NCBI GenBank assembly: GCA_964470965.1
Contig: CAYYIS010000001.1
Location: forward strand, 11,990-75,989
Direction: 5' to 3'
Length of the DNA stretch: 64,000 nt
Source of the DNA: an uncultured Gemmatimonadota bacterium
Lineage (GTDB): Bacteria; JAAXHH01; JABIQT01
The notes beneath the pieces were generated by a model that was given only the letters and a program-made list of their open reading frames with translations, was not told the DNA's origin and ran no database searches. A program made the position numbers and the translations under genes. The stretch's first letter is position 1; each line of letters opens with the position of its first letter. This document shows, piece after piece, positions 51,741 to 64,000 of this stretch.

Positions 51741-53120
51741 ATGTCTTTCGATGTGACCGAGACTTTGCAGAATGGAGTATCCCGCCGTGCGTTCATGAAG
51801 GGCGCGCTCCTCAGCGGTGCGGCACTTACCTTTGCGGACAAAATGGTCCTCGCGCAGGAGATGGCGACCGGACGTATTACCTCGAAAGACATACGCGGTA
51901 TCGGTGTGGAACCCGGTCTCGTACGTATGGCACTCAACGAAAACCCGATCGGCCCGTCCCGCTATGCCCTGCAGGCCATCGCGGACAATATGTTCGACAT
52001 TAACCGGTATGGATTCAATTCCTCTCCCCTGACTCAGGCGTTGGCCGAATATGACGGGATCGAACTGCCCGACAGTGGTGGCATGCCCAGCATGGCTGCC
52101 ATGATGAGAAGCGCCGCAGCCAGTGCCCGTAGTCAGGGCGCTGGCAGCCGTGGCCAGGGTGGTAGTCAGGGCGCTGGCAGCCGTGGCCAGGGTGGTAGTC
52201 AGGGTGGCGGTGGAGCAGGCGGCGGCAGAGGCGGTTTTCGTCGGCGCCCCACACCCTTTACGCTTTCTGCAGGGTCCGGCCAGCTTCTGGATGTGCTCGC
52301 GCTTGCTTATTTGAGTCAGGGCGGCGAGTCGATAGAAATGGATTTGGGATATGGCTCGATAAGTCGTGGGGCGGAAGAATACAGGCGAATGGGCATCAGC
52401 GCTAATGGCATTAAAGTGCCTGCAACAGGTGACTACAAACACGATCTCGATGCCATGAAGGCAGCTATCACACCCGCCACCACGCTTGTGGTGGTCACAA
52501 ATCCCAACAATCCGACCGGGACGCTCATGTCTTACGAAGACATTTCTGCCTTCGTCAAATCCGTACCGGAAGACGTGGTGGTGGTAGTTGATGAAGCGTA
52601 TATCCACTTCGTACGCGATCCCAACTATCAAAAGGCGATACCGCTGGCGCTCGAGCACGAAAATGTGATCGTGATCCGCACCTTCTCCAAGGTGTACGGC
52701 ATGCCGGCCATGCGTCTCGGCTATGCGGTCAGCAAACCGGGCGGCAGAATTCAGCAGAAACTGCGTTTCTACCTGACCGGCTCACCGAACCTGCTCGCGC
52801 AGGTCGCGGGCGCGGCGGCGGTGAAAGACATGGATCATGTCCGTCGGTCGCAGGAAGTGGTATGGAACTTCCGGGATCGTTGTTTTGCGGAATTCGATAA
52901 AATGGGTCTGGAATACATTCCCAGCGAAAGCAACTTCTTCATGGTCAACCTGGGTAAAGACTCCATGCCGGTCATGCGGGAATTGTTCTCGCGTGGCGTG
53001 ATGGTCACCAACCGTACCCGTGAGGCTATGCCGACCTGGATTCGGGTATCTTCGGGAACGGAGCGGGAAACGGAGGTGTTCTTGAACGAGTTGAAGGATA
53101 TCATGGCCAAGACGCTGTAA
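51741..53120 (+). CDS. HisC-like class I/II PLP aminotransferase with Tat signal and Gly-rich insertion
   Basis: SRRAFMK signal; NENPIGPS, NPNNPTG, DEAY and RTFSKVYGMPAMRLGY. GGAGG RBS. Confidence 0.88.
   Translation: MSFDVTETLQNGVSRRAFMKGALLSGAALTFADKMVLAQEMATGRITSKDIRGIGVEPGLVRMALNENPIGPSRYALQAIADNMFDINRYGFNSSPLTQALAEYDGIELPDSGGMPSMAAMMRSAAASARSQGAGSRGQGGSQGAGSRGQGGSQGGGGAGGGRGGFRRRPTPFTLSAGSGQLLDVLALAYLSQGGESIEMDLGYGSISRGAEEYRRMGISANGIKVPATGDYKHDLDAMKAAITPATTLVVVTNPNNPTGTLMSYEDISAFVKSVPEDVVVVVDEAYIHFVRDPNYQKAIPLALEHENVIVIRTFSKVYGMPAMRLGYAVSKPGGRIQQKLRFYLTGSPNLLAQVAGAAAVKDMDHVRRSQEVVWNFRDRCFAEFDKMGLEYIPSESNFFMVNLGKDSMPVMRELFSRGVMVTNRTREAMPTWIRVSSGTERETEVFLNELKDIMAKTL
52131..52204 (+). repeat. 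In-frame 33-nt tandem repeat (2 full copies plus a partial) encoding SQGAGSRGQGG
   Basis: AGTCAGGGCGCTGGCAGCCGTGGCCAGGGTGGT at 52131-52163 and 52164-52196, then AGTCAGGG. Confidence 0.95.
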
Positions 53121-53143: not shown

Positions 53144-53177
53144 AAAAGGCGTGCCTATGTCGGCACGCCTTTTTTTA
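53144..53177 (+). terminator. Intrinsic terminator, probably bidirectional
   Basis: AAAAGGCGTGCC-tatgtc-GGCACGCCTTTTTTTT. Confidence 0.85.
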
Positions 53178-53224
53178 TGATATTCAAGTCGCCAACAAGA
53201 TAGAGCCTGTTTATATTGCATTTT

Positions 53225-54526
53225 ATGAATAAGATCCGACTCATCTTTATACCCCTGGCCGTCACACTGGCCGTTCTACTCGTGCGGTTTGTGATGGAAG
53301 CCGCTGAGACCGGCGGCAGGTCTTATCTTAATATTACATATCTGATACCTGTATTTGCTGTATACCTTTCCTATGTCAGTGTGGTGAAGGATATGGGATT
53401 CGGGGGTTTTCAGGTAACATTCATACTCTATACGCTGGCGGTTCGTTTGTCAGTCATCCTGCTGTCGCTTGCCGGGGAAGCCAGTGGTATGGGTGGTAGC
53501 TACTTCGCCGCGGGGAACATCTTCTTCCTGATCGTCCCCCAGCTTCTCTTCTGGCCGGCCGCAGCGTTCATCGTAGGAACGTTTCTCTGGCCGGCCGTTG
53601 CGATGTTCACCGCGGGGCACCAAGTCGCCTACCGTGGCGTGGCGATCTGTGGCGGTGTTATTTTGGTTATTACCTTTATCGGAATCCCTTATGGGATTTC
53701 ATCGCTGTATACGGGCGGACTCGGCAGGCGGTCTTTCCAGGATACGCCGGAAATATACGATGTGGCTTTTGAAGACATCACGCTGACTGCGGCGGACGGT
53801 ATGAATCTACAGGGATGGTATATCCCGAACTCGGAGGCTGACGGTACGGTGATATTCTGCCACGGCCTGTTTAATCAACGGTCGGAAATGCTTGAGCAGG
53901 CGATCTTCATGAACGGGCAAGGGTATCGTGCGTTGTTGTTCGATTTTCGGAATCACGGTAAGAGCGATGGGTCTTACACCTCGTTCGGCTACCATGAACG
54001 CCAGGATGTAGTCGCAGCTCTGGATTATGTCAAGCAGACGCGTGCTGAAACCGGTCCTATTATTCTGTGGGGCATCTCTATGGGGGGCGCCAACTCCCTG
54101 CTGACTGCCGCGGAACAACCAGACGTAAGCGCGGTTATAGCGGAAAGCAGCTTTTATTCCGTTAGTGAAACGCTTCGCCATGATCTTACCCGGATGTTCC
54201 GCTTGCCTGTCACGCCTTTTGCCTGGCTTGTGGAATTTGTCACCGAAATGCGCCTTGGGATCAGTATTCAGGACCTCAACGTAGGCGAAGCGGCCGCACG
54301 GATCCAGGACTGTCCGGTCCTCCTAATAGGCGGTACCGCTGATGAACGGATGCCCATCCGGAATAACGAACGCCTGTTCAAAGTGATTCCGGGTGAGATG
54401 AAAGACCAGTGGGTGGTGGAAGGCGCCGGCCACGCGGATATTTGGAAGACCGCCAAAGACGAATACAAAGCCAGGGTAGTCAGTTTTCTGAATCGCTATA
54501 TCAGGAAACCTGATCCGATGGAATGA
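53225..54526 (+). CDS. Membrane-anchored alpha/beta hydrolase
   Basis: About 5 N-terminal TM helices; CHG, DFRNHGKS, WGISMGG nucleophile elbow and GAGH. Confidence 0.85.
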   Translation: MNKIRLIFIPLAVTLAVLLVRFVMEAAETGGRSYLNITYLIPVFAVYLSYVSVVKDMGFGGFQVTFILYTLAVRLSVILLSLAGEASGMGGSYFAAGNIFFLIVPQLLFWPAAAFIVGTFLWPAVAMFTAGHQVAYRGVAICGGVILVITFIGIPYGISSLYTGGLGRRSFQDTPEIYDVAFEDITLTAADGMNLQGWYIPNSEADGTVIFCHGLFNQRSEMLEQAIFMNGQGYRALLFDFRNHGKSDGSYTSFGYHERQDVVAALDYVKQTRAETGPIILWGISMGGANSLLTAAEQPDVSAVIAESSFYSVSETLRHDLTRMFRLPVTPFAWLVEFVTEMRLGISIQDLNVGEAAARIQDCPVLLIGGTADERMPIRNNERLFKVIPGEMKDQWVVEGAGHADIWKTAKDEYKARVVSFLNRYIRKPDPME

Positions 54527-54638
54527 GAAGCAACGGAAGTGAATTGACCCTGTTCCTGTTTTCCATTTACAACGCACTCCATACCATTATATATTAGCAA
54601 TCTAATGTCATCGCATATTAGACCAAAAAGGGGATTCT

Positions 54639-55520
54639 ATGTTTCGTGGATCGATCGTTCCAGTGGTTACGCCCTTTAAAAATGGTGCGTTGGATCTTGA
54701 TGGATTGGCAAATTTGATAGAATGGCAGATCGAAAGCGGTTCACACGGTATCTCAGTGCAGGGTACGACCGGCGAGCCAAGTTCTTTGAGTTTCGAAGAA
54801 CGCAAACTGGTAATAAAAACCGCTGCTGAGGTGGTCAACAAACGAGTACCGTTCGTGGCGGGCAGCGCCTCAACCAACCATGCCGAATCGCTGGCGTTGA
54901 CCAAGTATGCCGAGGAAGCAGGCTCAGATGCGCTGCTTTTCATCTCACCCTATTATTGCCGGCCCAGCCAGGAAGGCGTATACCGGCATTTCGACGCGCT
55001 TTCTAAAAGCACCGGTCTGCCGGTCATCCTGTACAATATACCGGGCCGGACCTCGGTGAACATCGAAATCGACACGGTTGCCCGACTTAAAGAGGCGAAT
55101 GCTAACATTATCGGAGTGAAGGAATCCAACAAGGATTTCGAGCACATCAATCGTCTGCTGCACCGTATGGGGCGTGATTTCCTGGTTTATTCCGGAATTG
55201 AACTTCTGTGCTATCCCATCCTGGCCATAGGCGGCGCTGGATTCGTAAGCGCCACCGGAAACCTGATGCCGGAGAGCGTGGCGAACCTGTACAATCTGGT
55301 GATGGATAATAAATGGGAAGAAGCGCGTGAATTGCACTACAGCATGATGACACTGAACGATGCTGTGTTCATGGAGATTAATCCGGTACCTGTTAAGGCT
55401 GCCCTCGGGATGATTGGTAGAATCAGCCCGGAGGTTCGACTGCCTCTTAGCCCTTTATCCGACACCAATCGGGATAAGCTCCGAAAGATTCTGATCGACT
55501 ACGGACTCATAGAAGGATAG
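54639..55520 (+). CDS. hpaI: DapA-like 2,4-dihydroxyhept-2-ene-1,7-dioate aldolase
   Basis: FRGSIVPVVTPF, GTTGE, YNIPGR and GVKESNKDFEH; linked to hpaGED. Confidence 0.75.
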   Translation: MFRGSIVPVVTPFKNGALDLDGLANLIEWQIESGSHGISVQGTTGEPSSLSFEERKLVIKTAAEVVNKRVPFVAGSASTNHAESLALTKYAEEAGSDALLFISPYYCRPSQEGVYRHFDALSKSTGLPVILYNIPGRTSVNIEIDTVARLKEANANIIGVKESNKDFEHINRLLHRMGRDFLVYSGIELLCYPILAIGGAGFVSATGNLMPESVANLYNLVMDNKWEEARELHYSMMTLNDAVFMEINPVPVKAALGMIGRISPEVRLPLSPLSDTNRDKLRKILIDYGLIEG

Positions 55521-55523
55521 GCC

Positions 55524-56597
55524 ATGAGTGGTATACCCATCAACTGGCTCTCACGCGAGGTAGTCCCGGACCATGCGCAGGTAGAGACCGTTCACATGCT
55601 CTCGACCAACGAAAACCCGCTTGGACCATCTCCCTCTGTCATCGAAACCCTCCGGAACCTGGCTCCTGAAGTGAGTCAATATCCGCCCCCAGATGATCAA
55701 AAACTGCGCCAGGCGCTGGTGGAGACCTATGATCGGGACTTGACTCCCCAGCACTTTTTTACAGCCAACAGTGGTTGCGAAGGCGTCGAGTTTATCGGCA
55801 AAGCCTTCCTGGGTCCTGATGATGAATGCATCATTTGCAGTCCCGCTTTCAGCGTATACCAATGGGCGGCTGATTTACAGAAAGCCAGAGTGGTGGATGT
55901 ACCGCTCGATCCAGAAAGCCTGACCCATCGAATCGATGCTATTCTGGAAGCGGTTACAGACCGCACCAGGCTCATCTTTCTTTGCAACCCGCACAACCCC
56001 GCCGGTACGATGACATCGGCGGCGGATATGGAGCGGCTCTATGCAGGCCTTCCGGATCATGTGGTCGTCGTTGCGGATGAGGTGTATATCCATTACGTCA
56101 ACCGTCCGGATTTCCCAGATTCCATTGCCGATATGGCGGCGGGCCGGAATGTTATAATGCTTTACAGTTTCTCCAAAGCATATGCCCTGGCAGGTATGCG
56201 TCTCGGGTTTGGGATCGCCCGCCCGGAACTGGCGACCCGCATATCCGCCTTCTGCCGTACATTTCACCTGAGTACGCTGGTCCTGGAAGCCGGTATCGCT
56301 GCGTTGCGTGATGAGGAACACAAGAAAAAATCGGTGGATCTGGTGTTGAGCGGTAAAATTTGGCTGTATCAACAGCTCGAACGGCTCGGCCTCAGAACAT
56401 GGCCAAGCCAGACCAACTTTATTCTCGTAGAACTCCCCGTTCCCGCCCATGACGCCGCCGTGCGTCTCCTGGACTACGGTGTTATCGTCATGCCCCAGGA
56501 CAAGTACGGCCTGCCGAACTGCATCCGAGTCAGTGTCGGCATTCCCGAGGGTAATGAGGTGTTTATCAGGGCGTTGGAGTTAACATTGGAGGATTGA
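55524..56597 (+). CDS. HisC-like (aromatic amino acid) aminotransferase
   Basis: NENPLGPS, CNPHNPAG, DEVY and SFSKAYALAGMRLG; 3 nt after hpaI. Confidence 0.85.
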   Translation: MSGIPINWLSREVVPDHAQVETVHMLSTNENPLGPSPSVIETLRNLAPEVSQYPPPDDQKLRQALVETYDRDLTPQHFFTANSGCEGVEFIGKAFLGPDDECIICSPAFSVYQWAADLQKARVVDVPLDPESLTHRIDAILEAVTDRTRLIFLCNPHNPAGTMTSAADMERLYAGLPDHVVVVADEVYIHYVNRPDFPDSIADMAAGRNVIMLYSFSKAYALAGMRLGFGIARPELATRISAFCRTFHLSTLVLEAGIAALRDEEHKKKSVDLVLSGKIWLYQQLERLGLRTWPSQTNFILVELPVPAHDAAVRLLDYGVIVMPQDKYGLPNCIRVSVGIPEGNEVFIRALELTLED

Positions 56598-56726
56598 TTC
56601 GCTGAATCAGTTGTTCGTTTGGAGACAAGGTAGGCCGTAAAACAAAGCCTCATTTCTGTTGGCTCTTTGCACAGATCTATCCTGCCCCTTCAGTGAACCA
56701 ATGAATCAACGAATCTTTCGAATCAT

Positions 56727-58355
56727 ATGCAATCTCTCACGGGTGGCGAAGCCGTCGTAAAATCACTTATAATGCACGGAGTGGATACCGTATTCGGGTT
56801 ACCCGGTTTGCAGAACGATGCGTTATACAATGCGTTCTATGATAGCAGGTCATCCGTTCGTGTGGTACATACGCGTCATGAGCAAGGAGCGGCTTACATG
56901 GCCCTGGGGTATGCGTTGGCTCGGGATGAACCCGGCGTTTACAATGTGGTGCCCGGCCCCGGTTTCCTGAACTCCACGGCGGCGCTTTCAACCGCCTATG
57001 CGACCAATGCCAAAGTGCTCTGTCTAACCGGCCAGATTCCCTCTGCGTACATCGGTCGCGGGATCGGTCTGCTGCACGAAATCCCGGATCAACTGGGGGT
57101 GTTGCGCTCTCTGACGAAGTGGGCGGATCGTATCGGAGCCACGCCGTCCGCGCCTGACTTGGTTGCCGAGGCGTTTCGACAGCTCAACAGCGGGCGTCCC
57201 CGGCCTGTGGGTCTCGAATGTGCCATGGATGTTCTGGCGAACTCAGCGCCGGTAGATCTGATGGCGGCACCGTTCCCGCTGCGGCATCCTCCGGTAGATA
57301 CGGATGCGCTGGAGAAAGCGGCAAAGATCCTGGGTCAGGCGAAACATCCGATGATTTTCGTCGGCCGGGGAGCGATGAACGTGTCAGAAGAAGTAAAACA
57401 GCTTGCGGAAATGCTTCAGGCGCCGGTGATCGGTTATCGGACCGGAAGAGGTGTCCTTAGCAGTCGCCATTACTTAAGCCATCCCGTTCCGGCCGCCCAT
57501 AAGCTATGGCCTCGGGTGGATGTGGCGCTGGCGATAGGCTCCCGATTCCAGTTGCCGCAAACCCACTGGGGCGTGGACAGCAACCTCAAAGTCATCCGGG
57601 TCGACGTGGACGCGGAAGCTATGAACAGAATCAATAAGCCTGACCTGGGGATAGTGGCCCGCAATGAGGATGTCCTGCCGCTCTTACTTCCATTAGTCGA
57701 AGCAAATAACATTGTTCGTGCATCACGGGAAACGGAGATGCTGGAGCTGAAGGCGTGGACAGACGAACAGTTCGCCTATCTGGCCCCTCAGAATGCTTAC
57801 CTGAACGTCATTCGCGATGAGCTCCCTGATGATGGGATTTTCGTAGATGAACTAACCCAGATAGGATACGTCAGTCGCCAGGTTATGCCGGTCTACAAGC
57901 CCTACACGTTCATCTCGACCGGATACCAGGGTACGCTGGGCTGGGGTTTCGCAACGGCCTTGGGCGTCAAGGTAGCTTATCCGGATACACCGGTTATCTC
58001 GGTCGCGGGCGACGGCGGGTTCATGTTCAACGTTCAGGAGCTGGCCACCGCTGTTCAACACCGGATCGGCTTGGTCACCCTGCTGTTCAACGACAACGCT
58101 TTCGGCAACGTAAAACGCATGCAGCAGGACCTTTATGGTAACCGGGTTATAGCGAGTGACCTACATAACCCCGATTTCATAAAAATGAGTGAATCCTTTG
58201 GCGCACAGGCAATCCGGGCGCACAACCCAGAGGAGATGCGGACAGCGATCCGGAAGGGTTTTGCGGAAGCAGGACCGACGATTATTGAAATCCCGGTTGG
58301 TCCTATGCCGGACCCGGAGCGGTTTAAGGTGCTACCTCGTGTAAGAGGAAAATAG
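56727..58355 (+). CDS. Thiamine pyrophosphate-dependent enzyme (putative 2-oxo acid decarboxylase)
   Basis: RHEQGAAYMA, VPGPG and GDGGFMF...NDNAFG. Confidence 0.88.
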   Translation: MQSLTGGEAVVKSLIMHGVDTVFGLPGLQNDALYNAFYDSRSSVRVVHTRHEQGAAYMALGYALARDEPGVYNVVPGPGFLNSTAALSTAYATNAKVLCLTGQIPSAYIGRGIGLLHEIPDQLGVLRSLTKWADRIGATPSAPDLVAEAFRQLNSGRPRPVGLECAMDVLANSAPVDLMAAPFPLRHPPVDTDALEKAAKILGQAKHPMIFVGRGAMNVSEEVKQLAEMLQAPVIGYRTGRGVLSSRHYLSHPVPAAHKLWPRVDVALAIGSRFQLPQTHWGVDSNLKVIRVDVDAEAMNRINKPDLGIVARNEDVLPLLLPLVEANNIVRASRETEMLELKAWTDEQFAYLAPQNAYLNVIRDELPDDGIFVDELTQIGYVSRQVMPVYKPYTFISTGYQGTLGWGFATALGVKVAYPDTPVISVAGDGGFMFNVQELATAVQHRIGLVTLLFNDNAFGNVKRMQQDLYGNRVIASDLHNPDFIKMSESFGAQAIRAHNPEEMRTAIRKGFAEAGPTIIEIPVGPMPDPERFKVLPRVRGK

Positions 58356-58451
58356 GAAGAATCAAGGATGAAACGCGACTTGTTCGCATGTCCGAAGTAA
58401 CATGCAGCGAGGTAGCAAAACTTTTTCCTGCTATGATTGCGGAGTGGACTT

Positions 58452-59324
58452 ATGAATTCAGTCATAATCCCTCAAGATACGGCCCTTTATCAATTTTTGG
58501 AACCTCTGGCGGAACAGAAGCGAATGCTGTTTCTGGCTGGACTCCCCGGTGTGGGTAAAAGCCTGCTGCTCAACCAGCTGGCATCTATAGCTCGAAGGCA
58601 CCGGCGACGAGTGCACCTGCTGCAATGGGACGTATGCCGCCAGCCGTTTGAGACGGACCGGGCGGTGCAGCAAGCATATCCGGAGATCGACGGGGTAACA
58701 CACGGTATGATACGTAAAGCCGTGGGGGTCTGGGCTCGCAAGGCCATCGGGAAATGGGCAATGGATTATACCGGTCCAGAGCATCTTTTGATCGGAGAAC
58801 TGTCCATGGTCGGCAATCGCCTGATAGAACTGGCGCGTAAGGAGGACGACCGGGCTGAGAACCTGCTCAGCGGCGATGGCACGTGTTTCATAACACCGGT
58901 ACCTACCCGCGAAGTGCGCCGGATGATCGAAGGTACCCGAGCAAAACGAAGCGCCGATCCGCAGCACCAACGGGAACAGGCGGATGCGGTGCCGGAGGTC
59001 ATGAGGGCGCTGTGGGAGGAGTTGTACCGGGTCGCCCACACATTTGGTGTCATCGACAGGGTGCCGCAGCAAAACACCATCGCCTACGATCCGGACGTTT
59101 ATGGTGGCGTCTTCAGCGCGTTGATGAAGCACCGGAACCACGAAGTACTCTCGATCGATGTCCACCTGTCGACCGACGGGTTTTCGGTTTACGATCTGGA
59201 CATAAATCAGCACGAACTGATCCCCACTGCACGGGATGTTGCGGACTGCATCGCCGAAATCGGATGCCGGTATCCGACTCAAGCCGGTCTGGATCAAGAG
59301 ATGGCCCGGTGGTATGTAGTTTAA
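58452..59324 (+). CDS. Hypothetical P-loop NTPase/kinase-like protein
   Basis: Walker A GLPGVGKS near the N-terminus; GGAG RBS. Confidence 0.6.
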   Translation: MNSVIIPQDTALYQFLEPLAEQKRMLFLAGLPGVGKSLLLNQLASIARRHRRRVHLLQWDVCRQPFETDRAVQQAYPEIDGVTHGMIRKAVGVWARKAIGKWAMDYTGPEHLLIGELSMVGNRLIELARKEDDRAENLLSGDGTCFITPVPTREVRRMIEGTRAKRSADPQHQREQADAVPEVMRALWEELYRVAHTFGVIDRVPQQNTIAYDPDVYGGVFSALMKHRNHEVLSIDVHLSTDGFSVYDLDINQHELIPTARDVADCIAEIGCRYPTQAGLDQEMARWYVV

Positions 59325-59391
59325 ATATACTAAGAATGGGTTGAAGCTGTCCGGTTAAGATTTTTCTCCTTTATTTTCCTGGAGGTCCACT

Positions 59392-59937
59392 ATGACGTTG
59401 CCGATGAAGGTCATGACTGACTACATTATAAGTATCGGTGCCGATAAGATCCCCCATACCAATAAAACCTATCTTGCCCACGCCATTGGTGTGTATCGGG
59501 ACATGAAGTCATGGGAAGAACATGACGAAATCTGTCGTGCGGCCATGTTCCATTCGATATACGGTACAGAAGGGTTCCAGACGTTTTGCCTGCCGCTTGA
59601 GCGACGGGATGAAATACGTCGTCTGATCGGTGACCGAGCCGAGCGGATCGCCTACGCAAACTGTGCCATGGACCGTGCCTCGTTTTATTCTCAGGTTGGC
59701 ACGCAGCAGGATATTTACCAGCTTAAAGATCGTATTACAGGCAGGACCATTGTATTATCCCACACGGATTTTGAGGATCTTATAAGGCTTCACCTGTGTG
59801 ATTATTTGGAGCAGGTTGAACGGGTTGAAGGTTGGGGTTATCAACGTGAGACCTTGAAAATAATGGGTGAACGGCTGGGCGGCGCAGCGCTGGCGGCCTA
59901 CAAGGCCACCTTCTCCCGCGAGCCTAAACCCGTGTAG
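59392..59937 (+). CDS. DUF6817-like (HD-superfamily-like) protein
   Basis: HTNKTYLAH...AAMFHSIYGTEGF...IGDRAERIAY; GGAGG RBS. Confidence 0.65.
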   Translation: MTLPMKVMTDYIISIGADKIPHTNKTYLAHAIGVYRDMKSWEEHDEICRAAMFHSIYGTEGFQTFCLPLERRDEIRRLIGDRAERIAYANCAMDRASFYSQVGTQQDIYQLKDRITGRTIVLSHTDFEDLIRLHLCDYLEQVERVEGWGYQRETLKIMGERLGGAALAAYKATFSREPKPV

Positions 59938-60107
59938 ACGGTTCTGATATGGCAGAAGAAACAGATGTCTCTGATTCTTATGCACACCGTGACGGTGCTA
60001 AGCGTATCACCGGTGTAGTCCGTTGGTGCCAGCCATCTGGCGGATGCGGCACCCTTCGGGATCACTGGCGACCTGGAACCGCAGAATCTATAGTGCCTGT
60101 TGTCGAG

Positions 60108-60136
60108 TTGCAAATTTTCAGACAGACTGTTATATT
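60108..60136 (+). promoter_or_regulatory. Putative sigma70 promoter of hpaG-hpaE-hpaD-IDO
   Basis: TTGCAA-17 nt-TATATT, flanked by an imperfect inverted repeat GAGTTGCAAAT/ATTGGTAACTC. Confidence 0.55.
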
Positions 60137-60183
60137 GGTAACTCTACAAAAAAAAGAACGCAAACGTACATACAGGAGTCCAA

Positions 60184-60927
60184 ATGAAACTGGCACGATT
60201 TGCTTGCAACGGACAGGTCCACGACGCGGTCTACAGGGACGACCAGCTGTGGGTCGGTTCCGTTGCGTATGATCCGAATGATGTGATGTGGCTCCCGCCC
60301 GTGGCGCATTCCAGCAAGGCCATCGGTGTAGCGCTGGGATATACTGATCACGCGGTCGAACTGGATCTGGAGCTCCCGGAGGAGCCGATCCTGTTTCAGA
60401 AGATGGTGAGTTCCTACATCGGCCACAAAGCGAACATCGTGTCACCTCGGAACATCGATTACATGCATTATGAGTGTGAACTGGTGGCTGTAATCGGACT
60501 GCCGGCGCGTAAGGTCAAAGCGGCAGATGCACTCGCTTATGTTAAGGGATACACTATCGGAAACGATGTAACGATCCGTGATTTCGTGACCAACTACTAC
60601 CGTCCGCCCATTAAAGCAAAAGGGTTCGACACCTTCGGCCCCGTCGGCCCATTCCTAACGAGCGCCGACGAGATCGATCCTACCAACGTGGGACTGCGCA
60701 CGTATGTCAATGATGAACTGCGCCAGGAAGGCAACACAAAACATCTCCGACATAGTGTCGCCGATCTGATTGAGTACATCTCCGACTACATGACCCTGTT
60801 TCCAGGAGATATGATCTGGTCCGGCACCCCTGAGGGTATTTCGCATATTTATCCGGGCGACAGGCTGCGCCTGGAGGTGGATGGACTGGGCACACTGGAG
60901 AATCAGGTGGTAGAAGAGGATCGATAG
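60184..60927 (+). CDS. hpaG: Fumarylacetoacetate-hydrolase family protein (HpaG C-terminal decarboxylase type)
   Basis: YMHYECELV, NDVTIRD, NYYRPPIKAKGFDTF and GTPEG. Confidence 0.8.
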   Translation: MKLARFACNGQVHDAVYRDDQLWVGSVAYDPNDVMWLPPVAHSSKAIGVALGYTDHAVELDLELPEEPILFQKMVSSYIGHKANIVSPRNIDYMHYECELVAVIGLPARKVKAADALAYVKGYTIGNDVTIRDFVTNYYRPPIKAKGFDTFGPVGPFLTSADEIDPTNVGLRTYVNDELRQEGNTKHLRHSVADLIEYISDYMTLFPGDMIWSGTPEGISHIYPGDRLRLEVDGLGTLENQVVEEDR

Positions 60928-60951
60928 ATTTACCTGTAAAGGATTTATCGC

Positions 60952-62469
60952 ATGGCCATAAAGCAGCACCCGGACCGGTTAAAGGCAGAATCCTATTGTT
61001 CCCAGTTTATTGACAACGGTATTCCACATCTTATCGCCGGAGAAGCAATACCGTCAGGTTCCGGGGCAATGTTTGACAATTTGACGCCGCTTGACAATAC
61101 GAGCATTTGCTCGGTGGCAGCAGGGGATGGTTCGGATATCGATCGGGCGGCACAGGCTGCGAAGGCTGCGTTCCCGGCCTGGCGGGATATGCCGGCGACC
61201 GACCGAAAGCACCTTCTGCATGCCGTGGCGGATCTTATCGTGGCCAATGCCGAAGAGATCGCTCTTCTGGAGGTATTGGATACAGGGCAGACAATCAAAT
61301 TCATGAGCAAAGCCGCTGAGCGGGCCGCTGAGAACTTCAGGTTCTTTGCCGACCGATCGGAGAGCGCCCGGGATGGACTGGCATTACCTGCAGAAGGTCA
61401 CCTCAATTACACCATCCGCCAGCCTATCGGACCTGTGGGCATTATCACCCCCTGGAACACGCCGTTCATGCTCAGTACCTGGAAAATGGCGCCCGCGTTG
61501 GCCGCCGGTTGCACCGTGGTGCACAAGCCTGCGGAATGGAGTCCGCTAACCGCCATGCGGCTATCCCAGCTGGTCCACGACGCCGGGATACCTCCTGGTG
61601 TGGTGAACGTAGTCAACGGTATCGGTGAGGTGGCCGGCAGAGCATTGACCGAGCATCCTGATATCAAAGCCATCGGATTTGTAGGCGATTCCAAGACCGG
61701 TCGTGCCATCATGCGTCAGGGTTCCGACACGCTAAAGCGAGTGCACTTCGAACTGGGAGGCAAGAATCCGGTTGTGGTGTTTGCAGACGCGGATCTGGAC
61801 CGCGCGCTGGACGCAGCCATCTTCATGATCTACAGCCTCAACGGAGAACGCTGCACCTCGAGCAGCCGTCTACTGGTGGAACGCAGCATCTATGAGGAAT
61901 TTACCACCCGGATGTCGGAGCGGGTTAAAAACATTAAAGTCGGCGATCCATTCGACAGAGGAACCGATCTGGGACCACTGATCCATCCGCTCCATTTGGA
62001 AAAAGTGTTACGTTACGTCTCCATAGGGCAGGAAGAAGGCGCTACACTGGCAGTGGGCGGCGATCGACCGAAAGGCTTTGAACACGGGAACTACTTCGCG
62101 GCGACGCTCTTTACCGAAGCATCAGGCGCCATGCGTATCGCACAGGAAGAAGTGTTCGGCCCGTTTCTGACTGCTCTGCCGTTCGACACGGAAGAAGACG
62201 CACTGGCACTGGCCAACAGCGTCAATTACGGCTTGGCCGCATACCTGTGGACCCGCGATGTCACCCGGGCGCATTCGTTCGCCCAGGGACTGGAAGCAGG
62301 CATGGTGTGGGTGAATTCCCAGAACGTTCGGTATCTGCCCACACCGTTCGGCGGTATGAAATCTAGCGGCATCGGTCGTGACGGCGGTGACTACAGTTTT
62401 GATTTCTACATGGAAACGAAAAACATCGATATCGCTCTGGAAAACCATCGAATCCCAAGGATGGGATAG
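60952..62469 (+). CDS. hpaE: 5-carboxymethyl-2-hydroxymuconate semialdehyde dehydrogenase
   Basis: ITPWNTPFMLSTWK, FELGGKNP, SLNGERCT and VNSQNVR. Confidence 0.92.
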   Translation: MAIKQHPDRLKAESYCSQFIDNGIPHLIAGEAIPSGSGAMFDNLTPLDNTSICSVAAGDGSDIDRAAQAAKAAFPAWRDMPATDRKHLLHAVADLIVANAEEIALLEVLDTGQTIKFMSKAAERAAENFRFFADRSESARDGLALPAEGHLNYTIRQPIGPVGIITPWNTPFMLSTWKMAPALAAGCTVVHKPAEWSPLTAMRLSQLVHDAGIPPGVVNVVNGIGEVAGRALTEHPDIKAIGFVGDSKTGRAIMRQGSDTLKRVHFELGGKNPVVVFADADLDRALDAAIFMIYSLNGERCTSSSRLLVERSIYEEFTTRMSERVKNIKVGDPFDRGTDLGPLIHPLHLEKVLRYVSIGQEEGATLAVGGDRPKGFEHGNYFAATLFTEASGAMRIAQEEVFGPFLTALPFDTEEDALALANSVNYGLAAYLWTRDVTRAHSFAQGLEAGMVWVNSQNVRYLPTPFGGMKSSGIGRDGGDYSFDFYMETKNIDIALENHRIPRMG

Positions 62470-62488
62470 TAAAATCTGAAAGGTCCCC

Positions 62489-63484
62489 ATGCCGATCCCA
62501 CAACCGAATCGCGCACCGCCGTTCAATATTGTGCGTGTCAGCCACGTGGAATTGGGCGTTACCGATCTGGTGCGATCGCGTGAATTTTATGTAGACATAC
62601 TGGGTTACCTCTGTGAAGGTGATACCGGAGACGCCTTGTACCTGCGTGGATTGGAGGAGAGGAATCACCACTCCGTCGTTCTGGTTAAGGGCGAGACGCC
62701 GATGGCGCAGCGGATAGGCTTCAAAGTGGCGAGCGAGGAGGATCTTGACAGGGCAGAGACGTTCTTTCACAGTAGAGGATGTCCCGTGGAATGGGTCGAA
62801 AAATATGCTCAGGGACGCACACTGCATGTCCGCGATCCTTTTGGTACTCCGCTTGAATTTTACTACGAGATGGAACGCCGGGAGCTGATGCTCCAAGAGT
62901 ATACAAAGTACCGTGGTGCTCGGATTCAACGGATCGATCACGTTAATGTGTTCGCCTGCAATGTGAATGCCATCACCCGTTTCTACGTGGGTGAGCTGGG
63001 ATTCCGACTTACTGAGATTACGATGACGGATATCAAAGACGAAGACTCCGATCTTTGGGCCACCTGGACGCATCGCAAAGGAAACGTGCATGACATGGCC
63101 TTCACCAACGGTATCGGTCCCCGCCTGCATCATATCGGTGTCTGGGTGCCAAGCGCGACGGACATCATAAATTTTTGTGATCTGCTGGCCAGTGCGGGGC
63201 ATGTCGGCGCATTCGAACGCGGTCCTGGCCGTCATGGTATCTCTAATGCATTCTTCTTTTACATGCGGGATCCGGACGGGCACCGCATCGAGTTGTTTTC
63301 GAGCGACTACAGCACCGTCGATCCGGATCACCCGCCACGCCTCTGGAACCTGGATGATCCCAGACGCCAGACCCTCTGGGGCCAGGCCGCGCCCCGATCC
63401 TGGTTCGAGGAAGGTGCTGTTTTCGAAGGGACTGAAACGCATCCACCTACACTGAAAGCCAAGCCGATCATCGCACCGGAATAG
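62489..63484 (+). CDS. hpaD: 3,4-dihydroxyphenylacetate 2,3-dioxygenase (VOC extradiol dioxygenase)
   Basis: LRGLEERNHHS, RIDHVN, GNVHDMA, LHH and ERGPGRHGISNAFFFYMRDPDGHRIE. Confidence 0.93.
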   Translation: MPIPQPNRAPPFNIVRVSHVELGVTDLVRSREFYVDILGYLCEGDTGDALYLRGLEERNHHSVVLVKGETPMAQRIGFKVASEEDLDRAETFFHSRGCPVEWVEKYAQGRTLHVRDPFGTPLEFYYEMERRELMLQEYTKYRGARIQRIDHVNVFACNVNAITRFYVGELGFRLTEITMTDIKDEDSDLWATWTHRKGNVHDMAFTNGIGPRLHHIGVWVPSATDIINFCDLLASAGHVGAFERGPGRHGISNAFFFYMRDPDGHRIELFSSDYSTVDPDHPPRLWNLDDPRRQTLWGQAAPRSWFEEGAVFEGTETHPPTLKAKPIIAPE

Positions 63485-63510
63485 TCTTAAGTTCAGTTGA
63501 AAGGTCTTGC

Positions 63511-64000
63511 ATGACCCAGCGCCCTGACTTCCTGAAACTCACCGATTTTGAGGTTGACCCGATCCGTGGTTTCCTCCCTGCCCAGAATCCTGTACAGGAA
63601 CTTCCAAGGGATTATGGAGCCTGGGAGCAGATAGCGGCCGATCTGTCCTCTCTCCTGACGGCGAATCAGCTGCGTCCTGCCATCGACCGACTCTCCGTAC
63701 TCGAAACGTCTAAACTGGTGACACAAGGCCAACTTCAGCGGGCAATGCTGTTGCTGTCTATGTTCGGTAATGCCTACGTGTGTGGGGGCGGCAAGCCGGC
63801 AACCGTTATTCCCCGTGGCCTGTCGGTCCCATGGTCAGAGATCGCTGAACGGGTTGGCCGCCCGATGATCACGTCTCATGCCTCCATCGTTCTGAACAAC
63901 TGGCGTCTCCTTGACGAAACCGGAGAAATCGACCTGGATAATATCGGGGCCCTGCAGCTTTTTTTGGGCGGTATGGACGAAGCGTGGTTCTATCTGGTGA
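63511..64000 (+). CDS. Indoleamine 2,3-dioxygenase-family heme protein, 3'-truncated by the window edge (not in the ORF track)
   Basis: Manual translation, open to nt 64000: MTQRPDFLKLTDFEVDPIRGFLPAQNP...YGAWEQIAADL...RAMLLLSMFGNAYV...VPWSEIAERVGRPMITSHASIVLNNW...FLGGMDEAWFYLV. Confidence 0.85.
   Translation, partial: MTQRPDFLKLTDFEVDPIRGFLPAQNPVQELPRDYGAWEQIAADLSSLLTANQLRPAIDRLSVLETSKLVTQGQLQRAMLLLSMFGNAYVCGGGKPATVIPRGLSVPWSEIAERVGRPMITSHASIVLNNWRLLDETGEIDLDNIGALQLFLGGMDEAWFYLV

Follow-up and report, generated by a model that had tools for sequence, protein, structure and literature searches.

At the 3' end of a 64,000-nucleotide stretch of DNA from an uncultured Gemmatimonadota bacterium (the window, G000:C1:11990-75989, G000 being the window's own genome with an estimated completeness of 100%) lies a run of genes that closes with IDO-A, a gene for an IDO-family heme dioxygenase placed directly behind the homoprotocatechuate genes hpaG, hpaE and hpaD. 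We conclude that IDO-A is probably a tryptophan 2,3-dioxygenase that opens an ordinary kynurenine route, because it falls in a subfamily linked to kynU, the kynureninase gene, shares the motifs of that subfamily, and because HpaB at the equivalog level is found neither with IDO-A nor without it. The original prediction had instead proposed that the IDO homolog makes the catechol in place of the HpaBC monooxygenase. This could not be upheld: within our sample of the phylum (33 genomes, all from one order) HpaD scores over its cut-off in 31 genomes, the HpaB-1 model in none, carriers of IDO-A included, and only three genomes (G000, G031 and G001) have IDO-A. As judged from gene order, the locus is a mosaic super-operon arm for aromatic amino-acid breakdown, fused from several blocks.

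Genes were called from a listing of open reading frames (ORFs) together with Pfam and NCBIfam scans of the window's proteins, using the NCBI equivalog cut-offs. All nine genes of the predicted co-oriented run were recovered on the plus strand (Table 1). We relied on which genes are present and in what order, on phylogeny and on conserved motifs; every enzymatic activity named below is inferred.

IDO-A groups with kynureninase-linked IDOs

As the original prediction had cautioned, the cluster runs off the window's edge. The window holds the start of IDO-A, and the complete gene (390 amino acids, G000:C1:75500-76672) is followed in the genome by genes for a permease, a sulfatase and a metallo-beta-lactamase (MBL)-fold hydrolase. 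The full-length protein matches PF01231 with 361 bits (cut-off 26) over profile positions 2-410 of 412, and the Pfam scan returned no other family. Among solved structures it matches IDO2 (213 bits) and IDO1 (189 bits).

To place IDO-A within its family, two trees were compared. The family splits into two halves with a support of 99 in FastTree (102 IDOs) and 100 in IQ-TREE (38 IDOs); one locus, L055, lay outside the length filter and is absent from both trees. IDO-A is monophyletic (92 and 91) and stands in the same half as the kynU-linked IDOs of actinomycetes and Chloroflexota, and a second IDO of the genome, IDO-B, stands in the other half. Of 103 IDO loci from beyond the clade that were compared, 10 have kynU next to the IDO, and most of these 10 also carry AMSDH, HAAO or ACMSD genes. 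They come from the Streptomyces scabiei group (six loci), Lentzea, Amycolatopsis, a Chloroflexota metagenome-assembled genome (MAG) and a Gemmatimonadetes MAG.

The active site points the same way. In the six sequence blocks that were compared (SHASxVL, DExWFYLxT, FYHRVRPF, GGSAAQSS, H338 and GTGGT) IDO-A equals the kynU-linked IDOs, and IDO-B differs from it in several. H338, G253, A257, Q258 and S259 are invariant in an alignment of 32 IDO sequences, so that both the heme histidine and the GGSAxQSS signature are present; we take these positions to correspond to His346 and Ser263/Ala264 of human IDO1. In the same alignment R228 is invariant and T362 nearly so; they lie in FYHRVRPF and GTGGT, aligned with the IDO2 motifs, and are presumably the counterparts of Arg231 and Thr379 of human IDO1, which bind the carboxylate and amine of tryptophan. 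If so, their retention makes an alpha-amino acid a likelier substrate than 4-hydroxyphenylacetate.

These observations bear on the idea that IDO-A is a heme-dependent aromatic hydroxylase of the TyrH or SfmD kind, which would turn tyrosine into DOPA or 4-hydroxyphenylacetate into homoprotocatechuate and so replace HpaBC. We regard this reading, in which the aminotransferase and the TPP (thiamine pyrophosphate) enzyme of the run would convert the amino acid into an arylacetate, as very improbable. Hydroxylation has been published for the wider heme-dependent aromatic oxygenase superfamily (PMC11791213, PMC11904535, PMC12312684, preprint 10.64898/2026.04.24.720734). Its members TyrH/LmbB2, SfmD, MarE and PrnB, which hydroxylate or mono-oxygenate, share with IDO-A a histidine-ligated heme and an aromatic amino acid as substrate. 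In contrast to these enzymes IDO-A is a plain IDO-family member by Pfam, closest to the solved IDO2 and IDO1, and its grouping and motifs are those of the kynU-linked IDOs; no hallmark of the hydroxylases was found in it, though no search aimed at one was made. The Arg and Thr that presumably bind the tryptophan carboxylate and amine argue against 4-hydroxyphenylacetate in particular. What speaks for a hydroxylase is the position of IDO-A directly after hpaD in all clade members able to show it, the lack of an equivalog HpaB in the genome (whose HpaB paralogs are distant, see below) and the redundancy of IDO-A with other candidate tryptophan dioxygenases. Against it also stand the kynurenine genes found downstream in relatives and 28 relatives that run hpaG, hpaE and hpaD with neither IDO-A nor canonical HpaB.

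Relatives keep the same blocks in other arrangements

Conservation of the locus was followed in a genome scan (one genome per GTDB species, queried with an IDO alignment) and in a metagenome scan. Among the best 80 of at least 539 genome loci, hpa genes lie beside IDO in one, L011, a MAG labelled Candidatus Latescibacterota whose IDO is identical to that of G031. The metagenome scan gave 23 IDO loci, and four of them (L091-L094, with 62-65% IDO identity) repeat the window's order: hpaI, aminotransferase, TPP enzyme, P-loop protein, hpaG, hpaE, hpaD, IDO, APC-type permease and sulfatase, then 3-5 kb of variable genes and the MBL-fold hydrolase. L093 is cut 477 nt upstream of IDO and L092 starts inside the P-loop gene, so neither shows sequence further 5'. 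Every member with upstream sequence (G000, L011/G031, G001, L091, L092 and L094) has IDO-A immediately after hpaD. The predicted linkage of IDO to hpaD is thus kept in all informative members of the clade, but it is confined to one narrow clade, with one of the best 80 genome loci and four of the 23 metagenome loci. The 5' side of hpaI in the metagenome contigs carries a PhyH gene and a gene of the nitroreductase family (BluB/IYD-like). The variable genes between sulfatase and MBL gene encode a YefM/YoeB toxin-antitoxin pair and an HTH protein in L091, next to small unknown ORFs (L091:14148-17743). In L094 they comprise PhyH, a thioesterase, a polysaccharide-type transporter and pieces of a condensation/PCP module (L094:14188-19411).

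Clustering of the neighbours in the 80 loci (four ORFs on each side of IDO) revealed no dominant family, the largest cluster comprising five loci; this clustering is rough, as the simple ORF caller missed the IDO itself in 14 high-GC loci. One candidate for a conserved module, an IDO-sulfatase-permease arrangement in three Phycisphaerae loci, was not counted as conservation because identities are only 25-28% and the sulfatase lies on the opposite strand.

On the window's own contig the MBL gene is followed by a gap of 250 nt and then by unrelated genes, and neither hpaB, hpaC, hpaF and hpaH nor kynurenine genes occur 3' of the run. In relatives, an ACMSD-like gene comes after the MBL gene in L091 and L092; L091 is seen as far as this gene, and in L092 a kynureninase gene (472 bits) is next. 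Consequently the downstream sequence cuts both ways for the claim that IDO-A stands in for HpaBC: the absence of hpaBC fits it, but the kynurenine genes just downstream in relatives do not.

In two genomes of the well-sampled sister genus g4 (28 genomes), G029 and G017, one strand reads TPP enzyme, P-loop protein, hpaG, hpaE, hpaD, APC-type permease, sulfatase, PhyH, ACMSD, kynU, KMO, AMSDH and HAAO, with no IDO within this run. Gene coordinates place kynU 5-6.5 kb from hpaD on a shared contig in 24 of the 28 g4 genomes; the other four have the two genes on different contigs. The hpaI-aminotransferase pair of G029, preceded by genes for a nitroreductase, an alpha/beta hydrolase and a Tat aminotransferase, is about 100 kb from its hpaG/E/D run. 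In G001 the kynurenine cluster reads ACMSD, kynU, KMO, TDO, AMSDH and HAAO; judging from the near-identical contig L092, it adjoins the IDO-A cluster on the side of the MBL gene.

Since relatives keep the blocks in other arrangements, the window's locus is a lineage-specific fusion of known blocks. The first block is hpaI with the HisC-like aminotransferase. A second comprises the acetolactate synthase (ALS)-like TPP enzyme, the P-loop protein, hpaG, hpaE and hpaD, with the APC/LAT-type permease and the cytosolic Cys-type sulfatase behind them. In relatives this second block continues into a third (ACMSD, kynU, KMO, in G001 TDO, AMSDH and HAAO) predicted to lead from kynurenine via 3-hydroxyanthranilate to 2-aminomuconate. 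In a sub-lineage IDO-A was inserted behind hpaD, ahead of the permease, and the MBL-fold hydrolase, which resembles PNGM-1, was gained as well. In this model IDO-A would oxidise L-tryptophan imported by the permease to N-formylkynurenine, which would feed the kynurenine genes, here moved to contigs C20 and C16.

Kynurenine genes and other tryptophan dioxygenases

The window's genome does carry a kynurenine cluster. On C20 it has kynU (473.8 bits, cut-off 246.4), HAAO (PF06052, 203.5 bits, cut-off 25) and KMO-like and AMSDH-like genes. The KMO-like FAD monooxygenase finds its best match in a VioC-type model (243 bits against 760), and the AMSDH-like aldehyde dehydrogenase scores 558 bits against 693 with a hydroxymuconic semialdehyde model. 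An ACMSD-like amidohydrolase, whose family match is Amidohydro_2 only, is encoded on C16. On C66, two tandem HpaH/MhpD-like hydratase/decarboxylase genes (G000:C66:1845-4214) adjoin a flavin reductase gene; the tandem pair may encode lower steps of the 2-aminomuconate route.

KynU is over its cut-off in 32 of the 33 genomes of the phylum. No TDO (PF03301) was matched in the window's genome, and two genomes of the 33, G001 and G031, have one. An IDO match is present in 30 of the 33, and those without IDO-A, among them 27 of the 28 g4 genomes, have only IDO-B, the widespread IDO type of the phylum. IDO-B accompanies IDO-A in each of the three IDO-A genomes, and an MBL ortholog occurs in exactly these three. 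The neighbours of IDO-B on C49 are a GNAT acetyltransferase, a rhodanese, a 327-amino-acid VOC protein and two aminotransferases.

Several of these facts weigh against tryptophan as the substrate of IDO-A. With IDO-B in all three IDO-A genomes, and TDO in G001 and G031 (its place within the kynurenine cluster being shown for G001 only), a further tryptophan dioxygenase is redundant. IDO-A adjoins hpaD (with a gap of 26 nt in G000) and not the kynurenine genes in all informative clade members, and the kynurenine genes of the window's genome are on another contig. IDO-A is also less conserved among relatives than its neighbours (62-65% against 68-86% identity), which would fit a shifting specificity. 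Finally, many bacterial IDOs reportedly have a low efficiency with tryptophan. Because of the redundancy, the adjacency to hpaD and the lower conservation, we keep a modified amino acid as a substrate that is unlikely but worth carrying along, and grant a catechol-forming role only a very slim chance.

In its tryptophan-like form this alternative holds that IDO-A cleaves the ring of another indole amino acid, such as D-tryptophan, 5-hydroxytryptophan or a halogenated or sulfated tryptophan of marine origin, in concert with the MBL-fold hydrolase, the permease and the sulfatase. We consider it rather unlikely, and just as tentatively suggest that the hydrolase could act as a formamidase or second esterase whose product joins the kynurenine genes. 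IDO-A and the MBL ortholog share exactly the same three of 33 genomes, and in G000 the genes for IDO-A, permease, sulfatase and hydrolase are contiguous (Table 1); yet permease and sulfatase also occur in relatives without IDO-A and hence are no specific partners. The sulfatase has the formylglycine motif CTPSR and no signal peptide, and should therefore act on an imported small molecule, although sulfatase genes are apparently numerous in the genome (several paralog matches), so that adjacency weighs little. The presence of IDO-B, and of TDO in two of the genomes, speaks for this alternative. Against it, no clade-specific change from the kynU-linked IDOs appears in the six active-site blocks. 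An MBL protein of 26% identity lies beside IDO, kynU and HAAO in a Chloroflexota locus (L053), and the nitroreductase-family (BluB/IYD-like) and PhyH genes at the relatives' clusters would suit a modified substrate. The hydrolase itself exceeds the cut-off of the "GntH" model (390 against 333), matches the solved PNGM-1 (PDB 6j4n) with 282 bits over 348 residues and has the HxHxDH motif. PNGM-1 was obtained from the metagenome of a deep-sea sediment; this MBL-fold enzyme is not known to have activities other than weak beta-lactamase and tRNase Z activity, and these suggest no role in a catabolic operon. The literature searched on bacterial IDO, the heme-dependent aromatic oxygenase superfamily, Streptomyces kynurenine clusters, homoprotocatechuate routes and GntH assigned no function to the IDO-A clade, the TPP/P-loop pair or the MBL-fold hydrolase. 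In all, tryptophan dioxygenation remains our preferred reading of IDO-A.

Predicted homoprotocatechuate cleavage without a canonical HpaB

The predicted identities of the hpa genes and their homoprotocatechuate meta-cleavage reading are borne out, as HpaD, HpaE and HpaG all exceed equivalog cut-offs, HpaG for the C-terminal-type domain only; from this we infer that the hpaG/hpaE/hpaD block degrades homoprotocatechuate by meta-cleavage. It is also correct that hpaB, hpaC, hpaF and hpaH are missing from the window, their nearest relatives lying elsewhere in the genome. HpaB-family genes are found on C36 (two) and C11, none of which reaches the cut-off of 480.2 bits (scores of 363, 338 and 203). 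The sole flavin reductase (PF01613) is the one on C66. HpaF (PF02962) has no match anywhere in the genome, and no HpaH (TIGR02312) reaches the equivalog level, the HpaH-like genes on C66 and C11 scoring 91-120 bits (best 119.9) against 351.5. The two HpaB-family monooxygenases of C36 belong to an island (L007:7069-19686, L008:898-10720) with a protocatechuate 4,5-cleavage cluster (ligAB, ligK, tautomerase); the island also encodes a UbiD-type decarboxylase, a reductive-dehalogenase-like protein, a 4-hydroxybenzoate 3-monooxygenase, an ABC transporter and another sulfatase.

The 28 g4 relatives have hpaG, hpaE and hpaD with neither IDO-A nor canonical HpaB, so that IDO-A is not the stand-in for HpaBC and the catechol must arise in another way. 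It may come from a distant HpaB relative, from the desulfation of a substrate such as a DOPA-type sulfate, or from a different oxygenase, for which PhyH and the nitroreductase-family protein are candidates.

The TPP enzyme travels with a P-loop protein and the hpa genes

The TPP enzyme finds its closest solved structures among acetolactate synthases. Its next-best family after NF006122 is the AruI-type 5-guanidino-2-oxopentanoate decarboxylase (357 bits, cut-off 500). No PDC/IPDC model stands among the 25 listed of its 54 matches, so the enzyme does not join the characterised arylpyruvate or indolepyruvate decarboxylases on this list. The conserved partners of the TPP enzyme are the P-loop protein and hpaG/E/D, not the aminotransferase: the P-loop gene follows the TPP gene in all relatives of the order that were compared, and the pair recurs in two Chloroflexota genomes, G034 and G037. 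G037 has TPP enzyme, P-loop protein and an FAH-family gene. The G034 cluster consists of TPP enzyme (63% identity), nitroreductase, P-loop protein, a 188-amino-acid protein, a second P-loop protein, HpaB, sulfatase, HpaG (64%), LysE, HpaE (71%) and HpaD (58%). One of its two P-loop copies has 426 amino acids with a C-terminal extension, the 188-amino-acid protein between them matches no family (L156:10428-13204), and transposase genes flank the cluster. Its HpaB is 26-30% identical to the HpaB paralogs of the window's genome.

Because the G034 cluster holds a true HpaB-family gene and a sulfatase, its gene content suggests that the TPP/P-loop/hpa system prepares a sulfated phenolic substrate ahead of ring cleavage. 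A plausible candidate route would take tyrosine or DOPA to homoprotocatechuate by way of the aminotransferase, an aldehyde dehydrogenase and, between them, the TPP enzyme acting as a 2-oxo-acid decarboxylase. Such an Ehrlich-type route is reasonable because the AruH/AruI route likewise places an ALS-like decarboxylase after an aminotransferase. Possibly a sulfated aromatic amino acid is desulfated before entering it.

More doubtful still than a modified substrate for IDO-A is a different placement of the pair, in which the TPP enzyme and the P-loop protein, instead of supplying homoprotocatechuate, would belong to the lower pathway and process a 2-oxo acid formed by ring cleavage, replacing the HpaF and HpaH steps. 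The same low probability attaches to its corollary that the aminotransferase and hpaI are a separate block joined by chance. This proposal draws on the conservation of TPP-Ploop-hpaG-hpaE(-hpaD) as a core in two phyla, on the distance of about 100 kb between this core and hpaI-aminotransferase in the sister genus, on the missing HpaF and the low HpaH scores, and on the single FAH domain where E. coli HpaG has two. However, the nearest named family, the AruI type, is a 2-oxo-acid decarboxylase acting behind a transaminase, and the HpaB and sulfatase added in the Chloroflexota cluster point to upstream substrate preparation. We know of no precedent for a lower-pathway TPP step of this kind.

Features of the run and its upstream region

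The positions of the genes and signals are collected in Table 1.

Table 1 Genes and predicted signals of the IDO-A locus and its surroundings. Unprefixed positions are those of the window.
Feature	Position	Strand	Support or remark
AT0, HisC-like aminotransferase with Tat-type signal	51741..53120	+	Pfam/NCBIfam; N-terminus SRRAFMKGALLSGAALTFA
Terminator-like hairpin	53144-53173		12 pairs and T-run; 3' of AT0
ABH, alpha/beta hydrolase with N-terminal membrane segments	53216..54526	+	Pfam/NCBIfam
Sigma-70-like promoter match	54566..54595	+	best of the region; 10 of 12 positions; 44 nt 5' of hpaI
HpaI-type (non-DapA) DHDPS-family aldolase	54639..55520	+	TIGR02313, 371.4 bits, cut-off 396.7
HisC-like class I/II aminotransferase	55524..56597	+	268.6 bits, cut-off 276.55
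ALS-like TPP enzyme	56727..58355	+	NF006122 (unnamed family), 748 bits, cut-off 571
P-loop kinase-like protein	58437..59324	+	Walker A GLPGVGKS; no Pfam family
DUF6817 protein	59392..59937	+	PF20680, 94.5 bits
HpaG, C-terminal-type FAH-family isomerase/decarboxylase, single domain	60184..60927	+	TIGR02303, 300.6 bits, cut-off 276.4
HpaE, 5-carboxymethyl-2-hydroxymuconate semialdehyde dehydrogenase	60952..62469	+	TIGR02299, 769.3 bits, cut-off 638.35
HpaD, 3,4-dihydroxyphenylacetate 2,3-dioxygenase, VOC type	62489..63484	+	TIGR02295, 395.7 bits, cut-off 321.4
IDO-A, IDO-family heme dioxygenase, first 163 codons	63511..64000	+	PF01231
APC/LAT-type amino-acid permease	L001:1732-3108	+	58 nt after IDO-A
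Sulfatase, Cys-type	L001:3124-4533	+	15-nt gap after permease
MBL-fold hydrolase	L001:4526-5635 = G000:C1:79525-80634	+	-8 nt from sulfatase
IDO-B	G000:C49, L010:9491-10645	minus	about 40% identical to IDO-A

The gaps between the nine genes measure 3-130 nt, except for 246 nt ahead of hpaG, and the run from hpaI to IDO-A is presumably read as a single transcript. Both this larger gap and the DUF6817 gene are particular to the window's genome; in relatives hpaG directly follows the P-loop gene. A DUF6817 homolog is found in the clusters of none of the relatives compared, which marks the gene as an insertion specific to the window's genome. The DUF6817 protein has no match among solved structures and shows an HD-like sequence pattern. 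An overlap with hpaG and the lack of any family match mark a 107-amino-acid ORF (59949-60272) as probably spurious.

The aldolase encoded by hpaI stays just below the cut-off of the HpaI model and exceeds that of the dapA model (297 bits against 206). The true dapA of the genome, a paralog with 35% identity, lies on contig C119 with dapB directly after it, which makes a catabolic role for the window's aldolase reasonable. Orthologs of hpaI across the order share 79-90% identity. Those of the aminotransferase in the relatives' clusters are 49-54% identical and always lie immediately 3' of hpaI. For the P-loop protein, Pfam gave weak matches only (AAA_16, AAA_30), solved structures gave weak APS-kinase/PSTK-like matches (E 0.014 or worse), and the matches in the Atlas are clusters of hypothetical proteins only.

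Upstream of hpaI, the block AT0-ABH-nitroreductase-hpaI-aminotransferase is kept in the sister genus (G029, L159), and the ABH ortholog in the equivalent block of G029 is 49% identical. AT0 is probably a transcription unit separate from the hpaI run. An exported aminotransferase is unusual, and the best family match of AT0 includes the pyoverdine enzyme PtaA. The hairpin behind AT0 (53144-53173) and the promoter-like site (54566-54595) would weakly fit a transcription start ahead of hpaI; since the totals of promoter and terminator sites equal the shuffled expectation, both are only weak evidence.

Relation to known systems

The locus resembles the hpa/hpc clusters of E. coli W and C in having HpaD, HpaE and a HpaG-type FAH protein at the equivalog level. 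With its DHDPS-type aldolase, distinct from the genome's dapA, it also resembles the variant with a DapA-like HpaI, which the description of TIGR02313 places in Thermus thermophilus and Oceanobacillus. It differs from the E. coli cluster in lacking HpaB and HpaC, in the single FAH domain, and in a genome where HpaF was not found and HpaH stays below the equivalog level. It adds the ALS-like TPP enzyme, the P-loop protein, the aminotransferase, the DUF6817 protein, the permease and the sulfatase.

The IDO-led kynurenine clusters of the Streptomyces scabiei group, Lentzea and Amycolatopsis contain the same IDO subfamily with the same motifs as IDO-A, and their set of kynU, KMO-like, AMSDH, HAAO and ACMSD genes is also present in the window's genome and, in relatives, at the same locus. 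Among bacterial kynurenine or 3-hydroxyanthranilate clusters, TDO-based ones are known. Unlike in the IDO-led clusters, IDO-A sits behind hpaD and is parted from the kynurenine genes by the permease, sulfatase and MBL genes and here by a contig break; moreover its host has a second type of IDO, to which relatives add TDO.

The arginine transaminase pathway of Pseudomonas aeruginosa (AruH/AruI) shares with the run a class I/II aminotransferase and an ALS-like TPP enzyme. The window's enzyme, however, is below the AruI cut-off, belongs to NF006122 and has the P-loop protein as its partner. In contrast to PNGM-1, the MBL-fold hydrolase of the run is part of a catabolic operon and was gained together with IDO-A.

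Significance

If IDO-A is an ordinary tryptophan dioxygenase, the locus shows how ring-cleavage routes of the tyrosine and tryptophan types have been combined with a transporter and a cytosolic sulfatase in a single super-operon of an uncultured marine lineage. It would also join the small number of genomic examples where a bacterial IDO, and not TDO, stands at the entry to the kynurenine pathway.

Three features of the locus could uncover new enzyme functions: the TPP/P-loop pair that travels with hpaG/E/D in two phyla, the catechol-forming step in a phylum where HpaD is nearly universal in our sample (31 of 33 genomes) and canonical HpaB absent from it, and the redundant IDO-A gained along with a PNGM-1-like hydrolase. 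As a speculative proposal that we think has a minor chance of being right, IDO-A and the hydrolase might form a two-enzyme entry step for sulfated or halogenated tryptophan or tyrosine of marine or sponge origin. The LAT-type permease would bring the substrate into the cell, where the cytosolic sulfatase would unmask it; in the boldest form, which we put forward with the same reserve, IDO-A would oxygenate a phenolic ring and feed the hpa genes. Should such an entry step exist, it would give the IDO scaffold a job other than tryptophan oxidation and PNGM-1-type proteins their first physiological role.

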